Positions 1,375 to 63,772 of a stretch of DNA of 64,000 nt are shown piece after piece; positions within the stretch are counted from its first letter, which is position 1, and each line of letters opens with the position of its first letter. A program made the translations under genes and the position numbers. The notes under the pieces were generated by a model. That model had not been told where the DNA came from. It saw only the letters and a list, made by a program, of their open reading frames with translations, and ran no database searches. Source of the stretch: Escherichia phage REP4; the sequence record OQ174503.1, one strand, 5' to 3'.

Positions 1375-1402
1375 AGATATATTTATTACATGGTATTTAG
1401 AC

Positions 1403-2914
1403 ATGACTGACATTAAAGTACATTTTTATGATTTTAGTCACGTGAGAATTGATTGTGAAGAAAGTACATTTCATGAACTCCGTGATTTCTTTAGCTTTGA
1501 AGCTGATGGATATCGTTTTAATCCGAAATACAAATATGGTCACTGGGATGGACGAATCCGTCTTTTAGATTATAATCGCCTTCTTCCGTTTGGCTTAGTC
1601 GGGCAAATTAAAAAGTTCTGTGATAACTTTGGCTATAAAGCCTGGATTGACCCACAAATTAACGAAAAAGAAGAATTATCAAGAAAAGATTTTGATGAAT
1701 GGCTTTCTAAATTAGAAATCTATTCAGGAAATAAAAGAATTGAACCGCATTGGTATCAAAAAGATGCAGTGTTCGAAGGGTTAGTTAATCGTCGTAGAAT
1801 TCTTAATCTTCCAACATCCGCAGGTAAATCTTTAATTCAAGCTTTGCTTGCACGTTATTATTTGGAAAATTATGAAGGTAAAATTCTTATCATTGTTCCA
1901 ACAACTGCTCTGACAACTCAGATGGCTGATGACTTTGTTGATTATCGTTTATTCAGTCATGCAATGATAAAGAAAATTGGCGGCGGAGCATCAAAAGATG
2001 ATAAATATAAAAATGATGCACCGGTAATTGTTGGTACATGGCAAACTGTAGTAAAACAACCAAAAGAATGGTTCTCACAGTTTGGAATGATGATGAATGA
2101 TGAATGCCATCTTGCTACAGGAAAAAGTATTTCATCTATCATATCAGGTTTAAATAACTGCATGTTCAAATTCGGTTTGTCTGGTTCATTACGTGATGGC
2201 AAAGCCAATATCATGCAGTATGTTGGAATGTTTGGTGAAATATTTAAGCCAGTAACGACTTCTAAATTAATGGAAGATGGACAAGTAACTGAGCTAAAAA
2301 TTAATAGTATTTTTCTTCGCTATCCCGATGAGTTCACTACTAAATTAAAGGGAAAAACTTACCAAGAAGAAATAAAAATTATTACTGGGCTCAGTAAAAG
2401 AAATAAATGGATCGCTAAATTAGCTATTAAACTTGCGCAAAAAGATGAAAACGCTTTTGTCATGTTTAAACACGTATCGCACGGTAAAGCTATTTTCGAT
2501 TTAATTAAAAATGAATACGATAAAGTTTATTACGTATCAGGGGAAGTTGATACCGAAACTCGAAACATAATGAAAACCTTAGCTGAAAACGGTAAAGGAA
2601 TAATTATAGTAGCTAGTTATGGTGTATTTTCTACTGGTATTTCAGTTAAAAATCTGCATCATGTTGTTTTAGCGCACGGTGTTAAATCTAAAATTATTGT
2701 ATTGCAAACAATAGGTCGTGTATTACGTAAGCATGGTTCTAAAACAATCGCAACGGTCTGGGACCTCATTGATGATTGCGGTGTTAAGCCAAAATCTGCT
2801 AATACAAAAAAGAAATATGTTCATTTGAACTATCTTTTAAAACACGGCATTGATCGTATTCAGCGCTACGCAGATGAAAAATTTAATTACGTAATGAAAA
2901 CAGTTAATTTATAA
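1403..2914 (+). CDS. uvsW: UvsW SF2 helicase (recombination and replication-fork remodelling)
   Basis: 503 aa; Walker A-like PTSAGKS, DECH box (MMNDECH), helicase C-terminal motifs; matches T4 UvsW in length and sequence. Confidence 0.95.
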   Translation: MTDIKVHFYDFSHVRIDCEESTFHELRDFFSFEADGYRFNPKYKYGHWDGRIRLLDYNRLLPFGLVGQIKKFCDNFGYKAWIDPQINEKEELSRKDFDEWLSKLEIYSGNKRIEPHWYQKDAVFEGLVNRRRILNLPTSAGKSLIQALLARYYLENYEGKILIIVPTTALTTQMADDFVDYRLFSHAMIKKIGGGASKDDKYKNDAPVIVGTWQTVVKQPKEWFSQFGMMMNDECHLATGKSISSIISGLNNCMFKFGLSGSLRDGKANIMQYVGMFGEIFKPVTTSKLMEDGQVTELKINSIFLRYPDEFTTKLKGKTYQEEIKIITGLSKRNKWIAKLAIKLAQKDENAFVMFKHVSHGKAIFDLIKNEYDKVYYVSGEVDTETRNIMKTLAENGKGIIIVASYGVFSTGISVKNLHHVVLAHGVKSKIIVLQTIGRVLRKHGSKTIATVWDLIDDCGVKPKSANTKKKYVHLNYLLKHGIDRIQRYADEKFNYVMKTVNL

Positions 2915-11790: not shown

Positions 11791-11820
11791 ATTATAACAC
11801 CACACGAGGGACTTGTAAAC
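11791..11820 (-). promoter_or_regulatory. T4-type early promoter (GTTTACA -35, TATAAT -10) for the 96-aa ORF
   Basis: rc on plus strand: ATTATA ...18 nt... TGTAAAC; the -35 overlaps the stop of the upstream alt paralog. Confidence 0.5.
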
Positions 11821-13877
11821 TACATTTTGAACTTTTTAGACATTCCGTTGATGTTAACCAAAGAAGCCAAGATTTGAGAAACTTCGTTTTCCTCTTCTTT
11901 TGATTCTTCTACAAGGAATTGATTAAATCCAGCCATTGGACGAACTTCACCAGTTTCCATCAGATGATCGCCATCATATACCGATTCTTCTAATTGTTCA
12001 GAAGGAGGAACGATTGTGCCTTCGATTAGATACTTGTTATAAGCAGTTTCTTTCATCATGTACGTACTCACTTTATTAATCTTCAGCAAAATTCCACGCG
12101 GTAGAATAACTTCAGCTTCTGATGGAAATCCTGATAAATGACCTGGAACGATAACTTTGATTCGCTCAGCTCCTTTAATTACCATACCCACGCTAGTTTC
12201 AGCATCTTCATTAGCATATGCAGAATGACTACCCATATGCATTAAATCTTCAGCATCAACTGAACCTTCTCCTTCACCAGAAAATACTGCACCGGAATCA
12301 TCTAGAGCCATATAGTTTTTACCATGCTCACCGAAGATATTTGGTTTAAGTGATGTGGATACGAAGTTCTTGAAATAGAACATTTTATTTTCAATATTAT
12401 GACGTAAAGTTTTAAAGGTAACTTCTTGTCCACGATAAAGCGTAGTTCCTGGAGGAAGAACTGAACCTTTGGCAAAGGCAGAATCCATTGTCTCGATGTG
12501 TTTAATAGCTCGTTCCATGTATTCTTCACGGGTAGAATCTGGTTTACCCAAGAGGAACGAGTTCATTTCAACATATGAATCTGCACAATAATCTTCAATT
12601 ACATCAGACTCAGCCTGAGTCAGTCCTTTTGGAGTTACTTCGGTGCTTGCGTATTCATATGCCTGAGCAGCAGATTCATTAATCAATTTATAAATGCCAT
12701 TCATGACAAATTGAATAATAGCTACCTTTTCATCTGGCGTGGCTTTAGAACCTTTAACTAAATCATTGACAATTTTCTTAATAACATCAAAGCTATTAGA
12801 AATATTAATGTCAGCAAGATCGCTTAAAATTTTATCGGTTTTATAATCAAAGAATTCTTTATTCTTTAAATATTCTTGAGAACCTTGATATGTTATATCG
12901 CTCTGCAGTCTGATAGACGGATCACGTAAACGTGCATGGGCCAATGCAATATGATTTCGGAAGCTTTCTAGTTCATAATCATTAGATTTAAAACGAGAAG
13001 CACTCCTCATACCACCGATAGCTCCTTTGCTGAAATTTGAACCAATCTGAATAACACCAGAGTTCATTGGTCCTTCTGCTTTATATACCGGAACTTTAGA
13101 TTCAAACTCTTGATATTTCTTAGCGGCGAAGCTATCACCCTGAAGTGAAGCATCGACAGTAGAATATTGAGCTTGTGCTGCTAATCGACGACTAATTTTA
13201 GTTTTCTGAATAACAGCTTGATCCGTGCGCTTATCATTTTCTAGAGCAATAGAAGCGGCAACAGCAACAGCTTTAGGAACAGCATTACCTGTTTTAACGT
13301 CTACATAAACATCACCAACCTTTGATTCAACTTTTGTGAATAACTCAGTTGAAATAGGAGGTACACCTGGAATGTCTTCTAAATTGGCACTTTTACGGTA
13401 AACCATAATATATGCGTACTTTTTATCGTAATCCCAGATTTCCTTTAAAAGAACATATCGACCCGCTCCTTTAGTACGTACTAAACGGTCGGCAATAACT
13501 TGCATTTGACGAGCTGCACCGTTTGTTTTACTCTTTAGTACGCGGAATAAGCATGCGTCAATTTTGTACTGTTTCATTGTCTGAAGAGCAGTATCAAAAA
13601 CCGCATTAATGACACCAATTGGATTTCCACCCAAGTTTTTAAGTTTAACGAGCGATAGTTTCTCATTGACACCTATCATTACGATATGCATCATTTTATC
13701 GCCTGGCTTAACGTTTTTATTTGTATCACCGCCAGAGGTGTATGTACAAAATCTAAATCCAGGAAGCACACTTTCTTCGCCGGCTTGAATAGAAAAAATT
13801 TGAGGTATTTTATGCTTAGGATTTAAGTTAACAACCGGCGCCGAAGCGCCGTCAAATAATTCTGTAATAAGTTCCAT
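11820..13877 (-). CDS. Alt-like ADP-ribosyltransferase paralog (685 aa)
   Basis: N-terminus MELITELFD... shared with Alt; ART motifs YRGQ / FVSTSL / EAEVILPRG; central region unrelated to upstream Alt. Confidence 0.85.
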   Translation of the reverse strand: MELITELFDGASAPVVNLNPKHKIPQIFSIQAGEESVLPGFRFCTYTSGGDTNKNVKPGDKMMHIVMIGVNEKLSLVKLKNLGGNPIGVINAVFDTALQTMKQYKIDACLFRVLKSKTNGAARQMQVIADRLVRTKGAGRYVLLKEIWDYDKKYAYIMVYRKSANLEDIPGVPPISTELFTKVESKVGDVYVDVKTGNAVPKAVAVAASIALENDKRTDQAVIQKTKISRRLAAQAQYSTVDASLQGDSFAAKKYQEFESKVPVYKAEGPMNSGVIQIGSNFSKGAIGGMRSASRFKSNDYELESFRNHIALAHARLRDPSIRLQSDITYQGSQEYLKNKEFFDYKTDKILSDLADINISNSFDVIKKIVNDLVKGSKATPDEKVAIIQFVMNGIYKLINESAAQAYEYASTEVTPKGLTQAESDVIEDYCADSYVEMNSFLLGKPDSTREEYMERAIKHIETMDSAFAKGSVLPPGTTLYRGQEVTFKTLRHNIENKMFYFKNFVSTSLKPNIFGEHGKNYMALDDSGAVFSGEGEGSVDAEDLMHMGSHSAYANEDAETSVGMVIKGAERIKVIVPGHLSGFPSEAEVILPRGILLKINKVSTYMMKETAYNKYLIEGTIVPPSEQLEESVYDGDHLMETGEVRPMAGFNQFLVEESKEEENEVSQILASLVNINGMSKKFKM

Positions 13878-13880
13878 GAT

Positions 13881-15974
13881 TTATCCTTGAACGAACTTGT
13901 AAGGCATGTTTGCAATATCTATGCAAGATGCAATAATTCCAAGAGATGATTCTACTTTTTGTTTAACATTTGATGAAACAAATGATGCAAAGTCAACTCT
14001 GTCTTCTATTTCAATATCACCTGTCATTGCAACTACTTCACCAGTTTCCATTAGACGGTCACCGTCATAAATTACTGATTCGGTGAGTTCTTCCGTAGTC
14101 ATAACTTCAGCTTGAATGAGTTTTGTATTATTAGATGTTGTTCCGTCATTATTAGAAGCATCAGTTATTTTATTAACTTTGACCATCAATCCGCGTGGTA
14201 GAATTACTTCAGCTTCTGTTGCTATTCCTAGACTTCCTGGATATACAACATTAACTTTATGAGCTCCATCAATTGCCCATCCTATTTGAACTTTAACGTA
14301 TTCAGGATTTTCTTTATACGCTCTTATTTCGTTTGGATTAATAGTTATTCCTTCTTCATTTTTATCAACTGTCAATTCATTACGAGCTTCTGGTTCTAAA
14401 AGACCAATACCAGCATGTGTAATTCCAAAACGTCCAAAAATGATAGGAGTTAAAGAAGTAGATACAAAATTTCTGAAATAGAACACTTTATTTTTAACTA
14501 GTGCTTCGTATATAGGAGCAGTCATGCTTTGAGCACGATAAACTGTAATGCCTTCTGGTATACGATCACCATTTTCAAAAGCTGAATCTAAGTTATTTAT
14601 AGCAGATTCAATTTCTTTTTCACTCATTACATCATATCGTTCTGGATTGTAACGACCCAAAAGAAGATTATTGATGTCAGTATATCCTGAACCACAATAC
14701 TCTCTAATGCCGCGCTTTTGTGATGGAGTATATTTAGAACCATCACGGGCAATAGTAATATCAATCATTGGACCTGCACCAATTCCAGAAAAGCTATAAA
14801 TCATTCTTTTAAGGAATTTAGTTTTTGCTGCGTTCCAGGAATTTTTAGTTATTTCTTCCCAGACTTCATCTGGCTGCCCTTTACGAGTTTTATTATGTTT
14901 ATCAAGCCAATTATCTTTATATTCTTCAAAGAATTGATTAACAGCTGCTGCGTATTTCTCTAAACATTTTATTGAAGTAGTTGGTTCATTTTTAATCGCA
15001 TTAAGAATTACATCTTTAATTTTTTCAGAAACTTCATTAACCTCACTTTTTGAAAAGAATTTATAATCATAGTGAAGTTCATCTGCAGTTCCTTCGGCAA
15101 TGATTTTTGCTGCCTTAGTTTTAGAAGCTAATGAATTAATTCCAAGTTTCATTTCTTCCGCTTCGGGAATTAAAGGAGCGGTAGCAGGTTTATTGAAATT
15201 AGCTGCGGTAGATTCATACTTCTGGAATAATTCGCTTTCAAATCTAGAAGATTCTAATGATTGACTTTGTGCAATTGCTCTACGGGAAATTTTAACTTTA
15301 ACGATTACAGCTTGGTCAGAACGTTTATCATTTTCTTGCGCAATAGATGCCGCAATTGCCTCATTTTTAGTTACTTGAGCTCCAGTATCTTTATTAATAT
15401 AAACATCGCCGACTTTCGATTCAACTTTAGTAAAGAGCTCGGTACTAATTTCCGGAACTCCTGGAATGTCTTCTAGTGATACATTTTTGCGATGTATAAG
15501 AATATATGCATACTTTTTATCATAATCCCAGAGTTCCTTAAGAAGGACGTATCTGCCACCTGAACGACTACGGATAAGTCTATCAGCAATAACTTGAATT
15601 TGTCGAGCTTGACCGGCAGTTTTAGACTTAAGAATACGAAGCATGCAGGCATCAATTTTATACTGACGCATTGTTTGCATTGCAACAGTAAAAACTGAAT
15701 TGATGTAATTAATTGGGCTTGGACCGAGACCTTTTAATTTAGCAATTGAACCTTTAGCAGTTAATGTAAAAGGAACAATATGCATCATTTTATCGCCCAT
15801 TTTTAAATCGCGATTAGTATCACCTCCAGATGTATAGGTACATAAACGAAAGCCTGGTTGTTCAATTGCATCATCAACGTGAACTGAAAAAATTTGCGGT
15901 ATTTTCTTCTTTGGATTTAAGTTTGTAATCGGAAGAGTAGTATCTTCGTCAAATAATTCTGTAATGAGTTCCAT
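13881..15974 (-). CDS. alt: Alt ADP-ribosyltransferase (virion-packaged, injected; 697 aa from second ATG)
   Basis: MELITELFDEDTTLPITNLNPKK...; ART motifs YRAQ / FVSTSL / EAEVILPRG; GAGG SD favours ATG at 15974 over 15977. Confidence 0.9.
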   Translation of the reverse strand: MELITELFDEDTTLPITNLNPKKKIPQIFSVHVDDAIEQPGFRLCTYTSGGDTNRDLKMGDKMMHIVPFTLTAKGSIAKLKGLGPSPINYINSVFTVAMQTMRQYKIDACMLRILKSKTAGQARQIQVIADRLIRSRSGGRYVLLKELWDYDKKYAYILIHRKNVSLEDIPGVPEISTELFTKVESKVGDVYINKDTGAQVTKNEAIAASIAQENDKRSDQAVIVKVKISRRAIAQSQSLESSRFESELFQKYESTAANFNKPATAPLIPEAEEMKLGINSLASKTKAAKIIAEGTADELHYDYKFFSKSEVNEVSEKIKDVILNAIKNEPTTSIKCLEKYAAAVNQFFEEYKDNWLDKHNKTRKGQPDEVWEEITKNSWNAAKTKFLKRMIYSFSGIGAGPMIDITIARDGSKYTPSQKRGIREYCGSGYTDINNLLLGRYNPERYDVMSEKEIESAINNLDSAFENGDRIPEGITVYRAQSMTAPIYEALVKNKVFYFRNFVSTSLTPIIFGRFGITHAGIGLLEPEARNELTVDKNEEGITINPNEIRAYKENPEYVKVQIGWAIDGAHKVNVVYPGSLGIATEAEVILPRGLMVKVNKITDASNNDGTTSNNTKLIQAEVMTTEELTESVIYDGDRLMETGEVVAMTGDIEIEDRVDFASFVSSNVKQKVESSLGIIASCIDIANMPYKFVQG

Positions 15975-15997
15975 CATATCCTCTCTAGTGTTTATTC

Positions 15998-23383: not shown

Positions 23384-23616
23384 AGTACGCCATACACCCT
23401 TTGTGCTTCAACTAATCCATCAAAATCCAGTTTGAGATGTGTTATTTGGTCACCATCGCCTGGATTCACAATTACTAATACTGAACGAGGAGTTTCGGTA
23501 ATAACACGAACCGACGTTTCAGGAAATCGTTCAGAAACCTTATTTACCAATTCTTGAGCAAATAGTTTAACTTTTTCTTGAAATTCTTTAACAGTAATTG
23601 GTTTTTCACTTAGCAT
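23380..23616 (-). CDS. Conserved hypothetical protein (78 aa)
   Basis: Track ORF. Confidence 0.6.
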   Translation of the reverse strand: MLSEKPITVKEFQEKVKLFAQELVNKVSERFPETSVRVITETPRSVLVIVNPGDGDQITHLKLDFDGLVEAQRVYGVL

Positions 23617-24137
23617 GTTGATCCCAGCTCCTTACTTTCAACGTTTTTAACTAATTTGACAGAAACTAATTCAGCATCTTGAGTAATCATTACCGGACCT
23701 TCTTCATACTCTTCGAGATATTCTAGAGCTTTCTTTTTAGCTTCTTCCTTCGTATCAGTTTGAGCATAGATATAAAACATACAACCAGTAATACCTACTA
23801 CTTTCCACTTAATTTCTTTATCAGTTTTAATTTCAAATTTACTTGTAGAATCATCTTTTTGAACTTCTTCGAAAAAAGAATATTCTAACATATAAGCAAT
23901 TGAAAATAACGGGCTAACTTTATAGGATTCGCCCATTACATCAACAGCTTTATACCAGCAATCATCAATTTCACGTTTAATGCTAATAACATTTTTCGCA
24001 GGATCTATTTTTACTTTAAATGAATTTTCCCCAATAAACTGGGCAATTCGTTTATTAGCCCCGCAGGTTTCATTAAAAATATCTTTATACCCAGCTTTAA
24101 AGCGATAAACCTTATCTTCTTCAAACCATTCGCTCAT
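23610..24137 (-). CDS. Conserved hypothetical protein (175 aa)
   Basis: Track ORF. Confidence 0.6.
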   Translation of the reverse strand: MSEWFEEDKVYRFKAGYKDIFNETCGANKRIAQFIGENSFKVKIDPAKNVISIKREIDDCWYKAVDVMGESYKVSPLFSIAYMLEYSFFEEVQKDDSTSKFEIKTDKEIKWKVVGITGCMFYIYAQTDTKEEAKKKALEYLEEYEEGPVMITQDAELVSVKLVKNVESKELGSTC

Positions 24138-24868: not shown

Positions 24869-26093
<1,225 letters not shown>

Positions 26094-29140: not shown

Positions 29141-30310
29141 TTAAAAATATTTTTTAAAACTCATCATAACTTTATCATCAACATCATTATCAATCTGTGC
29201 TACAAGGTAAGATGACAGTTCTACTTCTTGTGGCGCGGATTGAACATTATCAGAATTAAGATATTCACGAATCCAAGGATACGGGTGTTTAACCGGAGCA
29301 TCGGTAATTGGGCATGGAAGACCGCACTGTTTCATACGAGATACAGTTAAGTAATCAATAAAGCTCCACATGCTATTTGTATTTAATCCAGGAACATCGC
29401 CATCTTTAAATAAATGAACTGCCCAGTCTTTTTCTTGACGGTTAACTTCCATGAAAATATCAACTGCTTCTTGTTCACACTCTTGGGTGATTTTAACCCA
29501 TTCATCACCATCAGTGCCAAGTTGAAGTTGACGAATAATATATTGGGTGCCTTTAAGGTGAAGCTGCTCATCACGTGCAATGAACTTCATAATCTTGGCA
29601 TTACCTTCCATGATTTCCATGTTCTTATGGAAGTTAAAGGTACATGCGAAAGATACATAAAAACGAATAGCTTCCAATGCGTTGATTACGTGCAGGCAGA
29701 GGCAAAGAGATTTCATTAGTGCTCGTTTAGTACATTCAACAACTTTGCCTAACTCTTCTTTACGAAATCCTTCTGATAAAATTCCTTCATAATCTTCAAC
29801 CGCATTCTGATATTCACGAGTCTTAACTAGAACATCATCATAATAGCGACCGATAGATTCAGCACGTTTCATGATAGCTTCATCTAGTACAATCTCATCA
29901 AATACCTTCGATGGATCAGTATAAAGATTTCGCATGATATGAGTATATGAACGACTGTGAATAGTTTCACTAAAAGTCCATGTAGCAACCCATGTATCAA
30001 GACTTGGGTCTGAAATTAATGACATAAGTACAGCAGACGGTGCACGACCCTGAATGCTATCTAGAAGTGATTGATACTTCAAGTTATTAGTAAAAATATC
30101 TTGCTGATACTGAGGAAGCTTGTTAAATTGTGCAGCATCCATCATCAAGTTTACTTCTTCAGGACGCCAGAAAAATGATAATTGCTTTTCGGTTAAATCT
30201 TCAAAAACTTTATGGCGTTGAATATCATAACGCGCAATACCAAGACCTGAACCGAAGAACATAGGTTCTTTTAAAACATCAACTGGATTTGTATTAAAAA
30301 CTGTGCTCAT
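29141..30310 (-). CDS. nrdB: Ribonucleotide reductase small subunit NrdB (uninterrupted)
   Basis: 389 aa continuous ORF with di-iron/tyrosyl radical motifs; no intron. Confidence 0.95.
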   Translation of the reverse strand: MSTVFNTNPVDVLKEPMFFGSGLGIARYDIQRHKVFEDLTEKQLSFFWRPEEVNLMMDAAQFNKLPQYQQDIFTNNLKYQSLLDSIQGRAPSAVLMSLISDPSLDTWVATWTFSETIHSRSYTHIMRNLYTDPSKVFDEIVLDEAIMKRAESIGRYYDDVLVKTREYQNAVEDYEGILSEGFRKEELGKVVECTKRALMKSLCLCLHVINALEAIRFYVSFACTFNFHKNMEIMEGNAKIMKFIARDEQLHLKGTQYIIRQLQLGTDGDEWVKITQECEQEAVDIFMEVNRQEKDWAVHLFKDGDVPGLNTNSMWSFIDYLTVSRMKQCGLPCPITDAPVKHPYPWIREYLNSDNVQSAPQEVELSSYLVAQIDNDVDDKVMMSFKKYF

Positions 30311-30361
30311 AAATTTTCCGCTTAGTTAATAGATAGTGACTCGTCCGTGAGTCAAATTATA

Positions 30362-32626
30362 TCATAATTTACAGGATGAACAATCTTCAGCTTTTGGAGT
30401 TTCTATTTCATAATCATCAGTACCAGAACCGTCGCGAGTATTATGATAATAGAAATTTTTTCCGCCAAAATACCAAAAGTACAAAAGGTCATCAATCATT
30501 ATTGACATTGGAACCTTTCCTTTTGGAAAAATCTGCGGGTCATAATATGTATTCGCTGAAGCTGATTGACATACCCATTTCAGCATAATAGCTACCTGCG
30601 TAAGATAAGGTTTATTACCTTTCTTAGCTAATTTCCATGTATAATCATATAGGTCTATGTTATGTTCAATATTGGGCACGACTTGATTAAAGGAACCCTC
30701 TTTTGATTCTTTAACAGAGACTGGTCCACGTGGAGGCTCGATACCGTTTGTACTGTTAGAAACTTGGGAAGATGACTCACATGGCATAAGTGCTGATAAT
30801 GTGCTATTACGGATGCCAAAGAGCTTAAGGTCTTCCCGCAGCGACGACCAGTCACAAACGTATTTTGGAGCTGCGATTTGGTCAATCTTTTTATTGTACC
30901 AGTCGATAGGTAATTCGCCTCGAGACCAACGAGTGTCTGAATAATATTCGCAAGGTCCTTTTTCTTTGGCGAGCTTAATGGATGCTTTAATGAGTCCATA
31001 CTGTAATCTCTCAAATAGTTCATGTGTTAAATCGTTAGCATCTTCATAAGAAGCAAAGTTACTTGCCAGCCAAGCTGCATAGTTAGTAACACCTACACCA
31101 AGATTACGACGCTTTTTAGCTTTTTCTGCTTCAGGAACTGGATATCCTTGGTAGTCCAAAAGATTATCAAGAGCGCGAACTTGAACTTCTGCTAATTCAT
31201 TAATTTTATCTTGGTCTTGCCAGTCGAAGTTATCTAACACAAATGCAGATAACGTACATAATCCAATTTCAGCATCAGGACTATTCACATCATTTGTTGG
31301 AATAGCAATTTCACAGCACAAGTTACTCTGACGAATAGGTGCCTTTTCACGAATAAACGGAGTATAGTTATTCGTATTATCAATGAACTGTACATAAATC
31401 CTTGCTGTTCCTGAGCGTTCAGTCATGAGTAATTCAAACAGTTCACGGGCTTTAATACGCTTTTTACGAATATTAGGGTCTTTTTCTGCGGCTTCGTACA
31501 ATTCACGGAATCGGTCTTGGTCTTTAAAATAAGAATAATACAGCTCGCCACCCATTTCATGCGGACTGAACAGAGTAATATAATCGTTCTTTCCGAAACG
31601 TTCCATCATTAGATCATTCAGCTGGACGCCATAATCCATATGACGGATACGGTTTTCTTCTACGCCTTTGTTATTTTTCAAAACGAGAAGATTTTCAACT
31701 TCCAAATGCCAAATAGGATAATAAGCAGTAGCAGCGCCGCCACGAATTCCACCCTGTGAGCATGATTTAACAGCAGTCTGAAAATGTTTCCAAAAAGGAA
31801 TAACACCAGTATGGCGCACTTCACCTGTGCCAATCTTAGAACCTTCGGCACGAATCATACCAACGTTAATACCAATTCCAGCGCGTTTGGAGATATATTC
31901 AACAATTGAAGCAGAAGCTTTGTTAATAGACTTCAGCGAATCACCTGCCTCAATAACAACGCATGAACTAAACTGCCGAGTTGGAGTACGACATCCAGCC
32001 ATAATAGGAGTTGGCAATGAAATCTGTCGAGTAGATACTGCTTCATAAAAACGAATAACATGTTTTAATCTATCAACAGGTTCATCTTGATGCAATGCCA
32101 TTCCAATAGTCATAAATGCAAACTGTGGAGTTTCATAAATTTGACCAGTGGTTTTATCTTTAACGAGATATTTTTCTTTTAATTGCATCGCCCCGGAATA
32201 AGTAAATTCCATATCCCGCTCGTGCTTAATTTTTGATTCTAAAAATGTAATTTCTTCTGCAGAATATTTTGACAACAATTCAGGGTCATATTTACCTTCA
32301 TTTACACAGTAAGAAATATGGTCAATAAATGAACGTGGTTCATATTGCCCGTAAACATGCTTACGAAGAGCGAACATTAAACAGCGTGCAGCTACATATT
32401 GATAATCAGGCTCTTCAACTGAAATAGAATTCGCAGCAGCCTTAATGACAATGGTTTGAATGTCATCAGTTGTCATTCCATCACGGAGATATGATTTAAT
32501 ATTTTCATATAATTCATAAGGATCTACAGATGTTCCTTCAGCTGCCCAAGATAAAACTTTAATAATTTTTTGCGGGTCAAAGCTCTGAGAAACACCACTA
32601 CTTTTGATAACATTAATTAATTGCAT
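30362..32626 (-). CDS. nrdA: Ribonucleotide reductase large subunit NrdA
   Basis: 754 aa; ATP-cone N-terminus, catalytic Cys motifs, C-terminal CSSCKL-type tail. Confidence 0.97.
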   Translation of the reverse strand: MQLINVIKSSGVSQSFDPQKIIKVLSWAAEGTSVDPYELYENIKSYLRDGMTTDDIQTIVIKAAANSISVEEPDYQYVAARCLMFALRKHVYGQYEPRSFIDHISYCVNEGKYDPELLSKYSAEEITFLESKIKHERDMEFTYSGAMQLKEKYLVKDKTTGQIYETPQFAFMTIGMALHQDEPVDRLKHVIRFYEAVSTRQISLPTPIMAGCRTPTRQFSSCVVIEAGDSLKSINKASASIVEYISKRAGIGINVGMIRAEGSKIGTGEVRHTGVIPFWKHFQTAVKSCSQGGIRGGAATAYYPIWHLEVENLLVLKNNKGVEENRIRHMDYGVQLNDLMMERFGKNDYITLFSPHEMGGELYYSYFKDQDRFRELYEAAEKDPNIRKKRIKARELFELLMTERSGTARIYVQFIDNTNNYTPFIREKAPIRQSNLCCEIAIPTNDVNSPDAEIGLCTLSAFVLDNFDWQDQDKINELAEVQVRALDNLLDYQGYPVPEAEKAKKRRNLGVGVTNYAAWLASNFASYEDANDLTHELFERLQYGLIKASIKLAKEKGPCEYYSDTRWSRGELPIDWYNKKIDQIAAPKYVCDWSSLREDLKLFGIRNSTLSALMPCESSSQVSNSTNGIEPPRGPVSVKESKEGSFNQVVPNIEHNIDLYDYTWKLAKKGNKPYLTQVAIMLKWVCQSASANTYYDPQIFPKGKVPMSIMIDDLLYFWYFGGKNFYYHNTRDGSGTDDYEIETPKAEDCSSCKL

Positions 32627-32943
32627 AAGTCCTCAACTTGAAAATCGTCTTTAAACAATCGGTTAACTATATGGGCTATTATATCACCATGACACGGCTT
32701 TGGTTTACATGTGCATCCTAGCCTCATTCCACGTAAAGGCTCTAAATGTGCTTTAGTTATTTCTCCGGATTTAATTCGACGTATAAAATCTTTTTTGAAT
32801 AATTCAATGGCAGCCTCCCGGCTGCCAGCATCTTTACCGACGTAATTTCCCCAAAATGTACCACGGTGAATATTAACATCAAAGTCGGATTTATATTTAT
32901 TCACTACCCGGCATAGACGGCCCGCGCGGTAATAGTTCGTCAT
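32617..32943 (-). CDS. Conserved hypothetical protein (nrdA.1 position, 108 aa)
   Basis: Track ORF, Cys/His-rich C-terminal part. Confidence 0.6.
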
Positions 32944-33172
32944 ATTGTTTTTCCGTTAAAACAGTAATATCATAATAACAATCTGAAGAAGTTTTAACTG
33001 TAGAAATTTTATTATCAAAATACTCACGAGTCATTTTATGAGTATAATATTTTTTGCCATAAATGATAATAGGCTGTTCTGGCCCTGGAACTTCCAGTTC
33101 ACTTGGATTAGGAAGTGTAAAAAGAACAACACCAGAAGTATCCTTAAATCGTAAAATCATATATCCTCTCAA
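32897..33172 (-). CDS. Conserved hypothetical protein (nrdA.2 position, 91 aa)
   Basis: Track ORF. Confidence 0.6.
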
Positions 33173-33183: not shown

Positions 33184-34043
33184 TTACACCGCCATCTTTC
33201 CTTTCAAGACACCATGGGACTGATAATCTTTGAGAACGAAATCTCGTGCTGTCATATATTCAGTTAACCAATACATTTGAGTTTCAGTATCGCATTGACT
33301 GAATCCATTAGGCCAATTAATACTAAGTTTGCATAGATCCATAGGAGTTCTATTTAATATCTCTTTGCATTGCTCAATATGGTTAGAATAAATGTGTGTA
33401 TTACCACCCGAGAATACCAAATCGCCCGGAACTAGTTCACACATGTCAGCAACAATATGTAAAAGAGCAGCATAACTCGCGATGTTAAATGGAAGACCGA
33501 GGAAAACATCTACCGAACGTTGATACCATTGTAGGTCAAGGTATCCGTTACGCACATTAAACTGATAGAACATATGACAAGGTGGTAATGCCATCTGCTT
33601 GAGTTCAGCTGGATTCCATGCCGACACAATTTGACGTCTATCATTGGGAAATGTTTTAATACGATTAACAACTTCTACAATTTGATCTACACCACCAAAA
33701 TCACGCCACTGTTTTCCGTAAATTGGACCAAGTTCACCGCTATGATAACCTAAGTCTTTGGCCTGGTTTTCGTAGTTTTCATCCCAAATTGTTTTTCCTG
33801 CAATTAAAGATCCATGAGTACGTTGACGTAAATCATTTACGTTAGTACTTCCTGATAAGAACCACAATAACTCAGAAATACATGCATTCCAGGCGAGCTT
33901 CTTAGTCGTTACTGCAGGAAAACCTTTAGTTAAATCCCAGCGTAATTTAGTACCGAACAAAGCAATTGTTCCTGTGCCTGTTCGGTCATCGGTTTCATAG
34001 CCATTTTCCAGAATATCTTTAATTAAAAATTGGTATTGTTTCA

Positions 34044-34044
<1 letters not shown>
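33184..34044 (-). CDS. td: Thymidylate synthase (uninterrupted, no group I intron)
   Basis: Continuous ORF with catalytic PPCHMFYQF and folate-binding motifs; start taken at MKQYQ... (ATG 34044); the track ORF starts 4 codons earlier. Confidence 0.93.
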
Positions 34045-35073
<1,029 letters not shown>

Positions 35074-35081
35074 ATTATCTC

Positions 35082-35417
35082 CTAATATAAAGGATCGGGA
35101 ACATATCCACTGGCTTTAATCATTTTGATTAACGTTAGCAGTCCTTTATTAACTGCTTGTGAGATTTCATTAAAAACTTCATCACTAAAAAGTTCTAACA
35201 CTCCCTTCTGAACTTTTAATTTACAACCAACAATTTCGTCATCGCCTATAGTAAATTCGTTTCCGCCAATTCCACCGAAAAACTTAATTACACCAGTTAA
35301 CTGTGTTCCACGAGAATATGGGTCGTGTGATAAAGTAATATGAGTCACCCCAGGTACAGTTTTAAATTGGCAGCGAATGTTTACTTGGGAAATTCCAGTT
35401 ACATGAATGTCAGACAT
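35082..35417 (-). CDS. Conserved hypothetical protein (frd.2 position, 111 aa)
   Basis: Track ORF. Confidence 0.6.
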   Translation of the reverse strand: MSDIHVTGISQVNIRCQFKTVPGVTHITLSHDPYSRGTQLTGVIKFFGGIGGNEFTIGDDEIVGCKLKVQKGVLELFSDEVFNEISQAVNKGLLTLIKMIKASGYVPDPLY

Positions 35418-37432: not shown

Positions 37433-37500
37433 TTTTATTTCCTTTTTAATTTAATTAACAGTTGGTGCTATGACGATGTATGACCTCATAGCTGGTCAGT
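37433..37500 (-). promoter_or_regulatory. Gene 32 translational operator: 5' leader pseudoknot plus AU-rich unstructured region
   Basis: Minus-strand leader contains UGACC...GCUAUGA...GGUCA...UCAUAGC (two interleaved stems) followed by UUAAAUUAAAAAGGAAAUAAAA-AUG. Confidence 0.6.
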
Positions 37501-37515
37501 GAGATAATTATAATC

Positions 37516-37523
37516 TATTTATA
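37516..37523 (-). promoter_or_regulatory. Late promoter TATAAATA (minus strand) upstream of gene 32
   Basis: Plus-strand TATTTATA between gene 59 stop and the gene 32 leader. Confidence 0.45.
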
Positions 37524-37531
37524 ATAAGCAA

Positions 37532-45527: not shown

Positions 45528-48500
45528 ATGGCTACTTTAAAACAAATACAATTTAAAAGAAGCAAAACCGCAGGTGCACGTCCTGCTGCTTCAGTATTAG
45601 CCGAAGGTGAATTGGCTATAAACTTAAAAGATAGAACAATTTTTACTAAAGACGATTCAGGAAATATCATTGACTTAAGCATTTCTGCTGGCGGTAGTAT
45701 CAGTGGAAATATCACTCAAACTGGCGATTATTTACAAAATGGAACATATAATCTTAATGGAAACCAGTTTGTTTATGCAGGAAAATATATTGAATTTTTA
45801 CCTAAAACTGCTGGTAATGGTGCTTGGGCAAATCAACATAAAAATAAAGCTCCTATCTTTACCGATTTGAGTTCAACGACTTCTACTTCAGAATACCATC
45901 CGCTAATTAAACAACGCTATAAAGATGGAACTTTTTCTGTTGGTACGTTAGTAAACGAAGGTAGTTTTAAAATTCAATATATCAATGAATCTGGTGATTC
46001 AAAATATTGGACTTTTAATCGTAACGGTAGTTTTATTGTAGATAATGGCAGTATTGAAGTCCGTGCAGGTAATATTTCTGCATCAGGCAATATTAACTCG
46101 GCAACTGGATTTGTTTCTGCACCGCGCGTCAATACAAAAAATATTAACCTGAGTTCTAAAACCTTTATACCGAATAATGACACGGGTTATGACATTGTTT
46201 CTTTACCTACTTGGATTTATAATCCACCAGCAGATGGTTCTGACCGTGATACAAACGGATTGAACTACATGCGTAAAATGCGGGCTTCAAATACTTCTAG
46301 CATTTTCCATGAAATAGTTGACTGTCGTTCAGGAAAGCCACAAGAAATTTCTTGGTGGACCGGCGTAGGACCTTCGTCTTTCCAGTGGGCATTTGATACC
46401 TCTGGACGTATTACCGCAGGTAAATCTATTTCAGTAGGTCTTCCTGATAGTGGTACAAATGGCCGTTATCCACTTGATTCTGCAATTTCTATTGGTATTG
46501 CGATTGGCGATAACGATACCGGTATTAAATGGGTCCGCGATGGCGTTTATGACCTGATGGCTAACGGTATTTCATCCGCTACCATTTTGAACAACGGTAT
46601 TAATAGTACTAAAAAATTGATGGTTGGTTATAGCCGTGATTCCGGCTCTACTTGGGATTTCCCAAATAACAACCAAGCAATGTTTACTGCGCGTACCGAT
46701 ATTGATGGTAATAATAACGGCGATGGTCAGACTCATATTGGTTATAGCAGCAATTCTAAAATGTATCACTATTTCCGTGGCACGGGTCGTATGGCTGTCG
46801 GAATGGCTGAAGGTTTAATTGTTGAGCCGGGTATTTTAGATATTAAAACTGGGTCCAATAGAGTTGCTATTAGAGCAGATGGTACATTTGACTCAACCCA
46901 ACGTATTTCAATGCGTACTGGATTATTTTTATCAGGTGATGATAATACCAATGCTTTGTCATTTAAAGCGCCTACAGGTGTTGACGGGACAAAAACCATT
47001 AACTGGGATGCAGGCACTCGTAATGGTCAGAATAAAAATACTGTAACCATTAAAGCGTGGGGTAACTCATTTAACTCAACTCCAGGTAATAGAGAAACTG
47101 TATTCGAAGTTTCAGATTCACAAGGTTATTATTTCTACGCTCAACGTACTAATCCTGCGTCAGGTCAAACAGTAGGTCCTATTAATTTTAAATTTAATGG
47201 TACTGTAGAAACTGGACATATTGTTGGGCTCGGAAATATAAGTGCCTCTGGTACAGGTTCTTTTGGTGGCAATGTTACCATGTCTAATGGTTTGTTTGTC
47301 CAAGGTGGTTCTTCTATTACTGGGCAAGTTAAAATCGGCGGAACATCAGATGCATTAAGAATTTGGAATGCTGAATATGGCGCAATTTTCCGTCGTTCTG
47401 AAGATAAGTTTTATATTATTCCAACTCCGCAGAATGCCGGTGAATCAGGTGGTATTTCTAATTTACGTCCGTTCTATATTACATTAAGTAATGGTAAAGT
47501 TTCCATGGATCATGATGTAGATATCGGCGGCGGTAGATTTAAAGTAGAAGTGGCTGGAACTACGGCTGGTCAACGTATTACAGTTAATGCAAGTAGCGAT
47601 GCTATTAGAATAAATGCTCCAACACAAGAGTCTTCTAACTTCATTCAAGGACGTAAGGCTGATGTGCCTAAATGGTATTTGGGTATTGGTGATGGCGGCA
47701 ATGTCGTTCGTATGCACAGCTACACACATTCACATGGTATTGCATTAAATTCTGATTCTGTCGATATTACTAAGCCTCTTAAAGTCGGCAATGCCCAACT
47801 AGGAACTGACGGTAATATTACCAATGGTTCAGGAAACTTTGCCAACTTAAATACCACGTTAAATCGTAAAGTTAATTCTGGATTTATTACTTATGGAGCA
47901 ACCTCTGGATGGTATAAGTTTGCAACTGTAACAATGCCACAATCCACTTCAACAGTCTTCTTTAAAATAGTTGGAGGTTCTGGATTTAATAGCGGATTAT
48001 TCACCCAATGTAATATTGCTGAAATTGTTTTACGTACTGGTAATGAAAGACCTTCTGACTTAAATGCTGTATTATACACAAGAACAACTGGAATGTATAG
48101 CGCAGCATTTAGAAATATTGCAGTTAACAATGTCTCTGGAAATACATATGACATTTATGTTTATGCTGGAACATATTGTAATCAACTAGTTTGTGAATGG
48201 TCATGTACCGAAAATGCTACTGTTAGCGTTATTGGTATTAACTCATCTACCCAATCACCTGTGGATGCTCTTCCAGATACAGCAGTTGATGGGCAAGTTG
48301 CTAATGTTCTTAATAACTTGGTTGATCGCGGTAAAGTTAAGCGTTATGAAGCCGATTCTGAAATAGCTATTAATAGCCCAACCGGTATTCGTATCAGAAG
48401 CAATGGCGATAAAACTGGTTCTGTTGCTACAATGCTACGAAATGATGGCGGCAGTTTTTATATTCTGTTTACAGATAAAAATGCCACCGATGGCGCAGCA

Positions 48501-49316
48501 ACTGTTAATGGTGATTGGAATAGTAAACGTCCTTTCGCAATTAACTTAACAACCGGCGAAGTGATGATGAATAATGGCATAGCTGTTCGCAGCGCTGCTT
48601 TATTCTATAATAGCATAAACGTCAAAGATAATGGTTCTATTAACTTTGATAAATCAGGTGCTAACCCGAGAAATATGAGAATATTTCATGCTGGCGATGC
48701 TTCTCGCGGTAACCGCATTGAAATTGCAGATGAAACTAACTATATTGCTTACTTTGAAAAGACTCCAGGTGGAGCTAACCGCTTTGTAGTAAATAATGCT
48801 ACTGTAGCTGGTGTTAACCAAATGAATTCATTTGGTATTAATATCAATAACGCACTTGGTGGAAATAGTATAGCATTTGGTGATAATGACACTGGAATTA
48901 AACAATCCGGTGACGGACTTCTTGATATTATTACTAACGCCGCACGCCGAATGAGATTCCAGACAGGTGACACCTATTCTGACATGAATATAAACGCTCC
49001 AAACGTTTATATTCGTTCTGATATTCGTTTGAAATCTAATTTCAGACCTATTGAAAATGCTCTTGAAAAGGTTGAACAGCTTGATGGTTTAATCTATGAT
49101 AAAGCTGACTATATAGGTGGTGAAATTGTTCAGACTGAAGCGGGTATTGTGGCTCAAACACTGCAAGATGTTTTACCAGAAGCAGTTCGTGAAGTTGAAG
49201 ATATTAAAGGTAATAAAATACTCACTGTTTCTTCTCAATCCCAGATTGCTCTTCTAGTTGAAGCTGTGAAAACACTTTCTGCTCGTGTAAAAGAACTTGA
49301 ATCTAAACTTATGTAA
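45528..49316 (+). CDS. 37: gp37 long tail fibre distal subunit, T2-type with C-terminal intramolecular-chaperone-like domain
   Basis: 1262 aa, MATLKQIQFKRSKTAGARPAASVLAEGELAINLKDR...; C-terminal RSDIRLK...GIVAQTLQDVLPEAV...ALLVEAVK motif. Confidence 0.95.
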   Translation: MATLKQIQFKRSKTAGARPAASVLAEGELAINLKDRTIFTKDDSGNIIDLSISAGGSISGNITQTGDYLQNGTYNLNGNQFVYAGKYIEFLPKTAGNGAWANQHKNKAPIFTDLSSTTSTSEYHPLIKQRYKDGTFSVGTLVNEGSFKIQYINESGDSKYWTFNRNGSFIVDNGSIEVRAGNISASGNINSATGFVSAPRVNTKNINLSSKTFIPNNDTGYDIVSLPTWIYNPPADGSDRDTNGLNYMRKMRASNTSSIFHEIVDCRSGKPQEISWWTGVGPSSFQWAFDTSGRITAGKSISVGLPDSGTNGRYPLDSAISIGIAIGDNDTGIKWVRDGVYDLMANGISSATILNNGINSTKKLMVGYSRDSGSTWDFPNNNQAMFTARTDIDGNNNGDGQTHIGYSSNSKMYHYFRGTGRMAVGMAEGLIVEPGILDIKTGSNRVAIRADGTFDSTQRISMRTGLFLSGDDNTNALSFKAPTGVDGTKTINWDAGTRNGQNKNTVTIKAWGNSFNSTPGNRETVFEVSDSQGYYFYAQRTNPASGQTVGPINFKFNGTVETGHIVGLGNISASGTGSFGGNVTMSNGLFVQGGSSITGQVKIGGTSDALRIWNAEYGAIFRRSEDKFYIIPTPQNAGESGGISNLRPFYITLSNGKVSMDHDVDIGGGRFKVEVAGTTAGQRITVNASSDAIRINAPTQESSNFIQGRKADVPKWYLGIGDGGNVVRMHSYTHSHGIALNSDSVDITKPLKVGNAQLGTDGNITNGSGNFANLNTTLNRKVNSGFITYGATSGWYKFATVTMPQSTSTVFFKIVGGSGFNSGLFTQCNIAEIVLRTGNERPSDLNAVLYTRTTGMYSAAFRNIAVNNVSGNTYDIYVYAGTYCNQLVCEWSCTENATVSVIGINSSTQSPVDALPDTAVDGQVANVLNNLVDRGKVKRYEADSEIAINSPTGIRIRSNGDKTGSVATMLRNDGGSFYILFTDKNATDGAATVNGDWNSKRPFAINLTTGEVMMNNGIAVRSAALFYNSINVKDNGSINFDKSGANPRNMRIFHAGDASRGNRIEIADETNYIAYFEKTPGGANRFVVNNATVAGVNQMNSFGININNALGGNSIAFGDNDTGIKQSGDGLLDIITNAARRMRFQTGDTYSDMNINAPNVYIRSDIRLKSNFRPIENALEKVEQLDGLIYDKADYIGGEIVQTEAGIVAQTLQDVLPEAVREVEDIKGNKILTVSSQSQIALLVEAVKTLSARVKELESKLM

Positions 49317-49317
49317 A

Positions 49318-49335
49318 AGAGGGCTTCGGCCCTCT
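49318..49335 (+). terminator. UUCG-tetraloop hairpin agagggcTTCGgccctct after gene 37
   Basis: 7-bp stem; weak U-tract, may be an RNA-stability element rather than a terminator. Confidence 0.35.
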
Positions 49336-49346
49336 AAGGATTTTTA

Positions 49347-50138
49347 ATGGCAATTGTAGGTGTTCCTGGCTGGATTGGTGAATCTGCCGTGAATGAAACT
49401 GGACAACGTTGGATGGATGCTGCAATGAAAGCAGTTCGTGTTTCAGTTCCTGGTTGGATGAGCTCAATGGCTGGACAATCTAAAGAAGTATATTACAGCA
49501 TTGGTGCTAGCAATTCTTATAATAAAGATACGCTAATAAATTGGATAAAAGCCCAAGGAAGTACTCCTGTTGTTATTACTATTACAGGAAATATTGTTTC
49601 TCAATCTACTGGTGTTCCATGCTTAGATTTTCCTAGCTCATTAACTAATGCATATGTTACCTTAAATATTAATAGTGGGGTTCATGTATTAGGTCGGGGA
49701 GGAAATGGCGGAAGTAACTCTGCTGGTGGAGCAGGAGGAACTGCAATAAATAACGGAATTGGAACTCGTTTAAGAATAAACAATAATGGTATTATTGGTG
49801 GCGGCGGCGGTGGCGGCGCAGGTGCTAGATACAATCCTTTCCCTCAAATGGATATGAAATTTGGTGGCGGCGGAGGTCGTCCATTTGGCGCAGCTGGCGC
49901 AGCAGGAGGTGGCGCAGCTGCAGCATCTGCTGGTACAATTTCTGCTCCCGGTAAAGGCACTGTTTCTGGGGTTCACCATGGAGGAGATGGTGGAGATTTA
50001 GGAGCTGCTGGCAAATCTTCATATATTCAAGGTGGTACTGGAGGAACTATTCACTCGGGTGGCGCAGCAGGTAAAGCTGTTACTGGTAATGCTCCAACTT
50101 GGACTAAAGTTGGTACAATATATGGTGCAAGAGTATAA
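49347..50138 (+). CDS. 38: gp38 T2-type receptor-recognising adhesin with glycine-rich motifs
   Basis: 263 aa; poly-Gly motifs (GGGGGGGAGA, FGGGGGRPFGAAGAAGGG, GGDGGDLGAAG, GGTGGTIHSGGAAG) separating short variable segments. Confidence 0.85.
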   Translation: MAIVGVPGWIGESAVNETGQRWMDAAMKAVRVSVPGWMSSMAGQSKEVYYSIGASNSYNKDTLINWIKAQGSTPVVITITGNIVSQSTGVPCLDFPSSLTNAYVTLNINSGVHVLGRGGNGGSNSAGGAGGTAINNGIGTRLRINNNGIIGGGGGGGAGARYNPFPQMDMKFGGGGGRPFGAAGAAGGGAAAASAGTISAPGKGTVSGVHHGGDGGDLGAAGKSSYIQGGTGGTIHSGGAAGKAVTGNAPTWTKVGTIYGARV

Positions 50139-50169
50139 TTTTGAATAAATATCCTTAAAAGGAGGGTCT

Positions 50170-57132: not shown

Positions 57133-57405
57133 TCATAGTTCAATCTCAGCGATTTTCATTTCATTACTATTAATAGCCGCTTTAAGACTATCTGAAAGAA
57201 TTACATTCCAGTGGTCATTCATATGACCATTAACTAAGCGTGTAATTTCTTCGGGAGTTGAAAAATAAGGCGTATCAGACTCCCAATGCGATAGTCCCAA
57301 GCGAGTATAAATCATACCTTCATCATCGCTAGAATATTCAACTGACACAAACTCATCAGTTATTTTATGTTTAGCGTAATAAAATTTAAATTTCATTTTA
57401 CTCAA
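57133..57405 (-). CDS. Hypothetical protein (90 aa)
   Basis: Track ORF. Confidence 0.55.
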   Translation of the reverse strand: MSKMKFKFYYAKHKITDEFVSVEYSSDDEGMIYTRLGLSHWESDTPYFSTPEEITRLVNGHMNDHWNVILSDSLKAAINSNEMKIAEIEL

Positions 57406-57608
57406 TAATCCGCTAAAAGATCGACGATTGCATCACGAAGACACTTATTCGCAATACGTTTAAGAGCAATTTCAGTTTCTGGAGCATTTTGAATAATCAT
57501 CGAATTCAATTCAACCTCAGCAAACTGAAGTTCTTTAACTAATTCAGCTTTATATTTTCCTTGCCCTTTCTTAGCTTTTGCTCGTTTTAATTCAGCCGTA
57601 GTAAACAT
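57402..57608 (-). CDS. Hypothetical basic protein (68 aa from ATG 57608)
   Basis: MFTTAELKRAKAKKGQGKYKAELVKELQF...; GGAG SD; track ORF extended through promoter repeat. Confidence 0.55.
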   Translation of the reverse strand: MFTTAELKRAKAKKGQGKYKAELVKELQFAEVELNSMIIQNAPETEIALKRIANKCLRDAIVDLLADY

Positions 57609-57642
57609 TTTATTCTCCAAATCCGTATCAGTTGATAGTTGT

Positions 57643-57672: not shown

Positions 57673-57688
57673 CGTTTTGTGAAAATTT

Positions 57689-61951: not shown

Positions 61952-63772
61952 CTACTGGCTCATCCATTCTTTACGAAGGTCAGCATTATCTCCCATGAGC
62001 ATTTCAAAAAGCTCTTTCCAATTCTCAGGAAGTTTAACAACATCATATACTGGATTTTGAATCATCTCACGATATTCAGATTTTTCCAAAGAGCCAAGTC
62101 CTTTAATATAACGGATGCTATGTTTAGGTAGAGCATCTTTGGCACTCTCATATTCAGCGACTGTATAAAACCATTCTTGTTTTTTACCGACCTGAGCGAT
62201 GATTACAGGAGTTTTGACAAAGCGAATTCTTCCTTGTTCAAACAATTCTGGCCAATTACTAAAAAATCCGAGCAGAGAAGGATAAATGCTTCCTAGACCA
62301 TCATGGTCAGCATCAGTCATAATAGCAATATTATGATAATTCAAGTTTTCGGCTTTTTCACCAAGAACTAATCCAGTGATTGCGCAAATATCAAACAGTT
62401 CTTTGTTTTTAAGCATATCAGCATATGACATACCCCAACTGTTGAGAACTTTACCACGCAATGGATAACCGCCATGAAGTTCTTTATCACGAACATCAAT
62501 AAGATATCCGATAGCAGAATCACCCTCAGTCAAGAAAAGAGTAGTGTCAGCATCTTTACCACAAAGATTCGCTTTAATATGTTTATGAACCTTAGCTTTA
62601 GAGGCCTTTTTAGCTGCTTTAGTTTCAGCTGCTTTTTCTGCCGCCAATTTACGAGCCAAGGCAGCTTCAATAATTGGCATTAAAATTGCTTCATTATTCA
62701 AAATAGCACGTGAAATCTTTTTAGCATCAAGCTGAATATGACTACGGATTTCACCAAATGGAGAAGTCAAACGCTCTTTAGTTTGAGAATCAAATCGCAT
62801 GTTTTTCATATCACGAACAAACATAACGATAGTCAAGCATTCTTTAACACGTGCTTTAGTTACATCAATTTTGAATTTACGTTTGATTTGTGGAATAAGG
62901 TCTTCACAAATATCATCCATAACACAGTCAATATGATGGCCACCATTCTTAGTATGAATGTTATTGACGTATGTTAATTGACGAAAACCATCAGGTGAAC
63001 GACCGACCGCAATAGAACAATTTTCTTGTTCTTGAACAATAGCATGTTCATCATATTGGCGTGCATATTTCTTAAAATTACCCTGAACCTTTTTACCATT
63101 AAATGTAAATTGAATATCAGGATAAACTACTGCAAGTGTCTGGAGACGATCCAGTGTAATGTCAAGATAAACTTGAGATAGCTCATTAGTTTCAAATGAC
63201 ATAAAATCAGGAATGAAAGTAACGCGAGTTCCTTTCCATTTTCCAGGAATATCTTCCCACGATTTATTTTCCATGCCGTTTGAACAACGAACTACAATAT
63301 TATTTTGACCATCACCAGTTTCACCGACAAACATCACAGAAAAAATGTTAGTTAAACTAGAACCAACACCGTTCATACCACCAGTGACGCGTTCTTTATC
63401 ATCACCGAAGTTACCACCTGCTTTTGGAATAGTCCATGCAGCAACTGGACCAGGAATTTCTTCACCAGTAGGTGTTTTAACCATCGCCTGCGGAATACCA
63501 CGACCGTTATCTTCAACTGTTACTTGATTGTTTTTAATAGTAACATTAATTTTATTTGCGAATTTAAACTTAGTACGAATACCTTCATCTACTGAGTTAT
63601 CGATAATTTCATCAATAAGCTTAACAAGACCAGGTACATACTGAACACTTTCCCATTTACCAAACAGAAAGCGCTCATGCATTTCATTAGCAGAAGAACC
63701 AATGTACATGCCGCTACGCTTTTTGATATGTTCAATATCGCTCAGAATTTTAATTTCATTCTTAATCATCAC
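61952..63772 (-). CDS. 39: Topoisomerase II large (ATPase/Toprim) subunit, unsplit gene 39
   Basis: 606 aa continuous ORF covering GHKL ATPase (EIIDNSVDEG), transducer and Toprim (LFLTEGDSA, DADHDG) regions. Confidence 0.95.
   Translation of the reverse strand: MMIKNEIKILSDIEHIKKRSGMYIGSSANEMHERFLFGKWESVQYVPGLVKLIDEIIDNSVDEGIRTKFKFANKINVTIKNNQVTVEDNGRGIPQAMVKTPTGEEIPGPVAAWTIPKAGGNFGDDKERVTGGMNGVGSSLTNIFSVMFVGETGDGQNNIVVRCSNGMENKSWEDIPGKWKGTRVTFIPDFMSFETNELSQVYLDITLDRLQTLAVVYPDIQFTFNGKKVQGNFKKYARQYDEHAIVQEQENCSIAVGRSPDGFRQLTYVNNIHTKNGGHHIDCVMDDICEDLIPQIKRKFKIDVTKARVKECLTIVMFVRDMKNMRFDSQTKERLTSPFGEIRSHIQLDAKKISRAILNNEAILMPIIEAALARKLAAEKAAETKAAKKASKAKVHKHIKANLCGKDADTTLFLTEGDSAIGYLIDVRDKELHGGYPLRGKVLNSWGMSYADMLKNKELFDICAITGLVLGEKAENLNYHNIAIMTDADHDGLGSIYPSLLGFFSNWPELFEQGRIRFVKTPVIIAQVGKKQEWFYTVAEYESAKDALPKHSIRYIKGLGSLEKSEYREMIQNPVYDVVKLPENWKELFEMLMGDNADLRKEWMSQ

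Follow-up and report, generated by a model that had tools for sequence, protein, structure and literature searches.

The td gene of Escherichia phage REP4 (record OQ174503.1) forms one uninterrupted ORF within the window, i.e. the whole 64-kb stretch of DNA (64 000 nt) that was analysed (Table 1). An automatic ORF listing puts the start further out, at a TTG at position 34056; with the ATG at 34044 the protein begins with MKQYQ, like that of T4, and the gene has the 861 nt given in the annotations of all close relatives. The predicted product matches the Pfam family PF00303 (Thymidylat_synt) over the full profile (positions 1–266 of 266; E 1.6e-94; 316.4 bits against a curated cut-off of 24.3), and its residues 1–286 correspond to residues 1–286 of T4 thymidylate synthase (PDB 1TIS; E 1e-158). 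The active-site motifs are all as in T4, i.e. DRTGTGT (residue 20), DRR (135), PPCH (154), YQRS (174), DVFLGLPFN (179, with LPFN at 184) and NTHIY (215), and the phage-specific C-terminal segment of the T4 enzyme is present as well, at only about 30 % identity. A preliminary description of the stretch had called td a single continuous ORF with all catalytic motifs, with which the ORF, both matches and the motif list agree. With ORF and motifs intact, a pseudogene was ruled out. By family match, td is a predicted T4-type ThyA. Neither the gene nor the allele is new, and its state is a common one.

The gene is part of the conserved frd-td-nrdA.2-nrdA.1-nrdA-nrdB nucleotide-metabolism cluster. 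Its ATG shares the sequence TAATG with the stop codon of the preceding ORF, and because start and stop codons overlap, td is probably co-translated with its neighbours. The preceding ORF encodes a basic protein of 68 aa and overlaps the stop codon of frd at one end and the start codon of td at the other. The frd/td junction is a three-state variable slot: the 68-aa ORF is 100 % identical to an ORF at the same spot in the intron-bearing phage sutha, an unrelated 115-aa ORF is found there in SA20RB, JoYop, KAW1E185 and G2540-3, and T4 has no ORF at this place. A promoter and terminator scan around td gave promoter-like sites at chance level. Further upstream, between frd and frd.1, REP4 carries a 516-nt insert relative to T4 (34845–35360) with an 81-aa ORF (phrog_3183) and a 111-aa DUF7247 ORF.

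Table 1. Features in the 64-kb window of REP4 and their state relative to T4
Feature	Position	Strand	Remarks
Empty inh/uvsW junction (T4: segE)	1390..1408		T4 112044 joins 112680
nrdB	29141..30310	-	Uninterrupted, 389 aa; T4 nrdB intron site empty at 29643/29646
Empty nrdB/nrdA junction (T4: nrdB.1 and mobE)	30311..30365		T4 139719 joins 140420
nrdA.2 homologue (DUF5496)	32897..33160	-	Directly downstream of td; Pfam PF17600, 1.9e-60
td (thymidylate synthase)	33184..34044	-	One uninterrupted 286-codon ORF, 286 aa; ATG at 34044, stop codon ending at 33184
Equivalent of 38-bp I-TevI homing site (-27..+11)	33485..33522	-	Ungapped alignment to T4 exons
CAACG, 5'-CNNNG-3' I-TevI cleavage motif (-27..-23)	33518..33522	-	Read from sequence
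68-aa basic ORF at frd/td junction	34044..34250	-	phrog_9550, 1.3e-45, full length; no Pfam match; absent in T4
frd (dihydrofolate reductase)	34247..34828	-	Upstream of td; Pfam DHFR_1
Empty gene 32/gene 59 junction (T4, SA20RB: segG)	37496..37530		T4 147918 joins 148542
Gene 39 (topoisomerase II large subunit)	61952..63772	-	Unsplit, single ORF, 606 aa

When the REP4 gene was compared by blastn with the td locus of T4 (NC_000866), td nt 1–549 matched T4 td nt 1–549 (exon 1) with 85.4 % identity, and td nt 550–861 matched T4 td nt 1567–1878 (exon 2) with weaker identity. The break falls exactly at the T4 intron, and the missing part is the 1017-nt intron and nothing more, so that the insertion site is a contiguous exon 1/exon 2 junction, between positions 33496 and 33495. 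Since td has the length of the spliced T4 gene, it contains neither an intron nor an intein, and the latter was ruled out for the same reason, i.e. a length equal to that of T4 thymidylate synthase. The preliminary description had considered td to be intron-less and had proposed its alignment to T4 exons 1 and 2; both exons are matched from end to end, the insertion site is intact and free of indels, and neither an intron nor an intein, either of which had been named beforehand as speaking against the proposal, emerges from the alignment.

Rfam searches gave no group I intron match in the whole window at gathering scores, and no Intron_gpI match at E≤1 between positions 28500 and 35500 (nrdB to frd), where two weak unrelated matches (L20_leader and beta_tmRNA) were obtained. 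In control searches at the gathering score, Intron_gpI detected the ORF-less 320-nt td intron of HP3 (70 bits) and missed the ORF-containing td and nrdB introns of T4, which calls for caution in intron screens. Therefore, the Rfam result weighs little alone, and the blastn collinearity is decisive.

An alignment of the whole window to T4 shows that the T4 segments with segE, the nrdB intron, mobE, the td intron, segG and mobA are each absent, while their flanks still align (Table 1). In nrdB, T4 138457 joins directly to 139058, i.e. T4 138458–139057 with the I-TevIII intron is absent, and gene 39 lacks T4 2794–3910 (gene 60 bypass, 60.1 and mobA). Homing endonucleases were searched for with tblastn and phmmer and with custom-made GIY-YIG and HNH profiles (HMMs) derived from the seg and mob proteins of T4, at a threshold of E 0.01. 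None of 12 T4 homing-endonuclease proteins (seg, mob and I-Tev), nor one from sutha, had a significant match in any of the six frames, and no GIY-YIG endonuclease ORF was found below the threshold in the whole window by tblastn, phmmer or HMM. The best endonuclease match, denA (EndoII; E 0.098), is a plausible distant GIY-YIG relative and was rejected as a homing gene. Pfam and PHROG scans found no nuclease or endonuclease domain in the ORFs absent from T4. What had been proposed from the letters alone, i.e. no GIY-YIG ORF and, with observations on nrdB and gene 39 included, a backbone free of introns and homing endonucleases, holds within the 64-kb window.

Several other features of the window differ from T4. 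The alt gene (ADP-ribosyltransferase) is present as two tandem full-length paralogues (11820–13877 and 13881–15977, minus strand; 685 and 698 aa), whereas T4 has one alt gene and the short remnants alt.-1 and alt.-2. Nucleotide similarity to T4 is low or absent in the distal tail-fibre region (45674–50144, genes 37/38), which was to be expected of modules for host range. T4 also lacks the small ORFs at 23610–24137, 25773–26093 and 57133–57707 (all minus strand); they encode 175, 106, 90 and 101 aa, each with a match to a PHROG of unknown function and none with a nuclease domain. Outside REP4, a free-standing I-TevI-like gene of 243 aa (GIY-YIG, NUMOD3 and I-TevI DNA-binding domain) was seen at 4087–4818 of the sutha locus; there, as also in TB004 (about 5028–5366), it takes the place of nrdA.1 directly downstream of an intron-bearing td and is on the opposite strand.

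The REP4 window belongs to a Tequatrovirus, the best-matching record being vB_EcoM_SA20RB (96.9 % over 25 kb), with whose annotated td (OL960581, UIU28175.1) the REP4 gene is 99.1 % identical at the nucleotide level. Matches to td were obtained in 543 phage records, around 225 of them contiguous, i.e. intron-less, and the T4 td intron was matched by 260 records, nearly at full length in 197 and in ORF-less or truncated form in others. The intron-less state of td is common, as it is found in roughly half of the sequenced relatives, and it has been on record since the late 1980s that the td intron and free-standing homing endonucleases are patchily spread among close relatives of T4 (PMC2988022, PMC2993671).

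Compared with T4, td is a sharp divergence island, with 85 % identity in exon 1 and 59 % (ungapped) in exon 2, in a surrounding backbone of 88–100 % (frd 94.5 %, nrdA 95.2 %, nrdA.2 and nrdA.1 88–100 %). Identity falls off more steeply from approximately the place of the T4 intron and rises again about 25 nt ahead of the stop codon of td, and the longest run of exon 2 identical to T4 before nt 801 is 11 nt. Three td alleles, 59–86 % identical to each other, sit in backbones that are around 95 % identical. Allele A, the REP4 type, is also found in SA20RB and JoYop; all 25 records with a full A-type exon 2 are intron-less, and in 25 records a gene of the REP4 type (92.9–99.1 % identity) bears the annotation thymidylate synthase. 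Allele B, e.g. in vB_EcoM_KAW1E185, is intron-less too and is the commonest intron-less form, while allele C, the T4 type (T4, sutha and HP3), provides the sequence that flanks the intron in every intron-bearing gene examined. The A type is a minority td allele, with a 3' third strongly unlike that of T4. A second divergence island was seen in nrdB, the 5' part of which (29646–30310, minus strand) is 83.6 % identical to T4 compared with 96 % in the 3' part; it adjoins the place of mobE and the I-TevIII intron in T4.

I-TevI requires a 5'-CNNNG-3' motif for cleavage (PMC2988022, PMC4065259). In REP4 this motif reads CAACG; its C opens the Gln codon and its G is the middle base of the Arg codon of the conserved YQRS motif, and its spacing to the insertion site is as in T4, with no indels. 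Around the insertion site (^), the T4 sequence is TATCAACGCTCAGTAGATGTTTTCTTGGGT^CTACCGTTTAATATTGCGTC and the REP4 sequence is TATCAACGTTCGGTAGATGTTTTCCTCGGT^CTTCCATTTAACATCGCGAG. Across the 38-bp site the two differ at six positions (-22, -19, -6, -4, +3 and +6), all of them synonymous, and 16 of the 20 positions of the primary binding region are as in T4, the changes being those at -6, -4, +3 and +6. Two more changes, both T to C, are located just past the 38-bp site, at +12 and +15, where the cytosines would carry glucosyl-hydroxymethyl groups if REP4 modifies its cytosines like T4.

I-TevI is generally tolerant of substitutions (PMC2988022, PMC4065259), and it binds its operator, which matches the homing site at 15 of 20 positions, with equal affinity (PMC2988022). 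The spacer is sensitive to changes at positions 2, 3, 6 and 8 (PMC4065259); these four are unchanged in REP4, which has changes at positions 1 and 4. In addition, the I-TevI nuclease and linker fused to a TALE DNA-binding domain cut the motif and spacer of natural phage td sequences 53–87 % identical to T4, with reduced activity on one only of these td substrates (PMC4065259). Among codons for the same amino acid, the T4 codon is used by 9 of 16 in the site, as against 110 of 154 elsewhere in exon 1 and 17 of 39 where exon 2 begins, i.e. there is no excess of synonymous divergence at the homing site relative to the surrounding td codons. The site has diverged to much the same degree as its neighbourhood, which gives no hint that resistance was selected for, and this, together with the intact motif and spacing and the published tolerance of the enzyme, makes it likely that the REP4 site can be cleaved by I-TevI.

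Evidence in this direction is also given by other phages in which an A-type gene carries the intron. With td exon 1 alone as the query, an A-type exon 1 (94–96 % identical to REP4) combined with an intron was found in four phages, i.e. G2540-3, 121/2022-2B, pSe_SNUABM_01 and TB004, each with a 1016-nt I-TevI intron at nt 549/550. Eight loci were then painted by allele, using the 208 sites that separate REP4 td from T4 td. In the three chimeras with a T4-type intron (G2540-3, 121/2022-2B and pSe_SNUABM_01), exon 1 is of the A type as far as nt 462 and of the T4 type from nt 498, the switch lying inside a 35-nt block of identity (463–497) just 5' of the I-TevI cut, and exon 2 is T4-type up to about nt 800, with the last 60 nt or so A-type again. 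The TB004 intron is a different variant, about 90 % identical to that of T4; here exon 1 is largely A-type, exon 2 is T4-type and the last 60 nt or so are mostly not A-type.

Homing into a gene of the A type, with the flanking exons co-converted, would be expected to leave this pattern, which is supportive of such an event. It also accounts for the lack of any record in which the intron and an entirely A-type exon 2 occur together. However, similar mosaics could be given by ordinary recombination, and for this reason the chimeras are supportive rather than proof. If they did arise by ordinary homologous recombination and not by I-TevI-initiated homing, they would be silent on the cleavability of the REP4 site. 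T4-like genomes are indeed highly mosaic, and REP4 itself switches partner at the td borders, from the 68-aa ORF shared with sutha to a td shared with SA20RB. Nevertheless, the T4-type tract is short, is centred on the intron, starts in the identity block just 5' of the cut and recurs with two different intron variants, which makes such an origin rather unlikely.

Our data are best explained, with a probability that we put at about 0.9, by a functional, never-interrupted Tequatrovirus td of the A type with an empty I-TevI homing site, which would be expected to act as a homing recipient. If REP4 and an intron-bearing relative infected the same cell, I-TevI would presumably bind around the exon junction and cut 23/25 nt upstream of the insertion site, at CAACG, and donor-templated repair would then be predicted to introduce the intron along with adjacent exon sequence. 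Because exon 2 shares little homology with T4-type donors, with no identical run beyond those 11 nt before nt 801, homing from such donors would work less well than it does between closely similar alleles. The suggestion that this phage would be a recipient in mixed infections, also made in the preliminary description, is thereby supported as far as sequence comparison goes, both by the intact motif and spacing and by the natural chimeras with what seem to be co-converted flanks.

Conversely, the A allele might be refractory to I-TevI, either because drift or selection has made the target resistant or because the divergence of exon 2 blocks repair, and might be intron-less because it cannot be invaded. 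The intron is found in nearly half of all td records but in none of the 25 whose exon 2 is A-type throughout, and the six substitutions in the site, those at +12 and +15 and the low identity of exon 2 also point this way. On the other hand, the absence from these 25 records is exactly the prediction of co-conversion, as an invaded allele loses its A-type exon 2, and the combination of an A-type exon 1 with the intron exists in the four chimeric phages. As the codon identity at the site gives no special signal either, and the CNNNG motif is preserved at the T4 distance for an enzyme that tolerates many substitutions (PMC2988022, PMC4065259), we consider refractoriness very unlikely. A related idea, to which we give similarly little credence, is that td is a hot spot shaped by the intron and its endonuclease, in which the A allele would have stayed intron-free as a poor target, owing to the divergence of exon 2 or to glucosylated cytosines at +12 and +15, i.e. 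a natural partial resistance. Finally, it is most improbable that td is a formerly intron-bearing gene from which the intron was precisely deleted, e.g. through recombination with a spliced cDNA or an intron-less allele: degenerate td introns in relatives, ORF-less or truncated (320 nt in HP3; others keeping 24–45 % of the T4 intron), do indicate that intron decay and loss occur in the T4-like group, but both sides of the REP4 insertion site are A-type, unlike the T4-type flanks of every intron examined, the painting reveals no co-conversion scar (T4-type diagnostic bases are not clustered at nt 498–800), and the exon junction is in frame and bears no footprint.

The td allele of REP4 is already in GenBank at 99 % identity, and the homing mechanism is established biology. 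With the A-type gene seen both uninvaded, in REP4, and invaded, in G2540-3 and similar phages, and with co-conversion boundaries that can be read, the pair makes a clean natural example, which could be of use in teaching or as a benchmark for the analysis of homing tracts.

Among known systems, the closest counterparts are the td genes of SA20RB, ime09, Shfl2, G50 and CrRp10, which are the same intron-less A-type allele (98–99.1 % nucleotide identity, all 861 nt). In SA20RB, exon 2 is 100 % identical to that of REP4 and the flanking nrdA.2, nrdA.1 and nrdA genes are the same, but the ORF between frd and td is the unrelated 115-aa one, and segG, absent in REP4, is present between genes 32 and 59. 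The B-type td of KAW1E185 is likewise uninterrupted (861 nt) and in the same context, at about 80 % nucleotide identity overall; its active-site Arg codon is AGA, which gives CAAAG in place of the CAACG of REP4, and it differs from REP4 at 11 positions within the 38-bp site. T4 td (NP_049848; 1TIS) encodes the same 286 aa at the same cluster position with the same catalytic motifs, with exon 1 90 % identical to REP4 at the amino acid level and exon 2 57 %, residues 240–275 being essentially different; in contrast to REP4, it has the 1017-nt group IA intron and I-TevI. The G2540-3-like chimeras, in turn, differ from REP4 by the intron and the T4-type tract from about nt 498 to about nt 800, both absent from REP4, and by this comparison REP4 td appears to be the uninvaded form of the very A allele that is found invaded in G2540-3 and similar phages.
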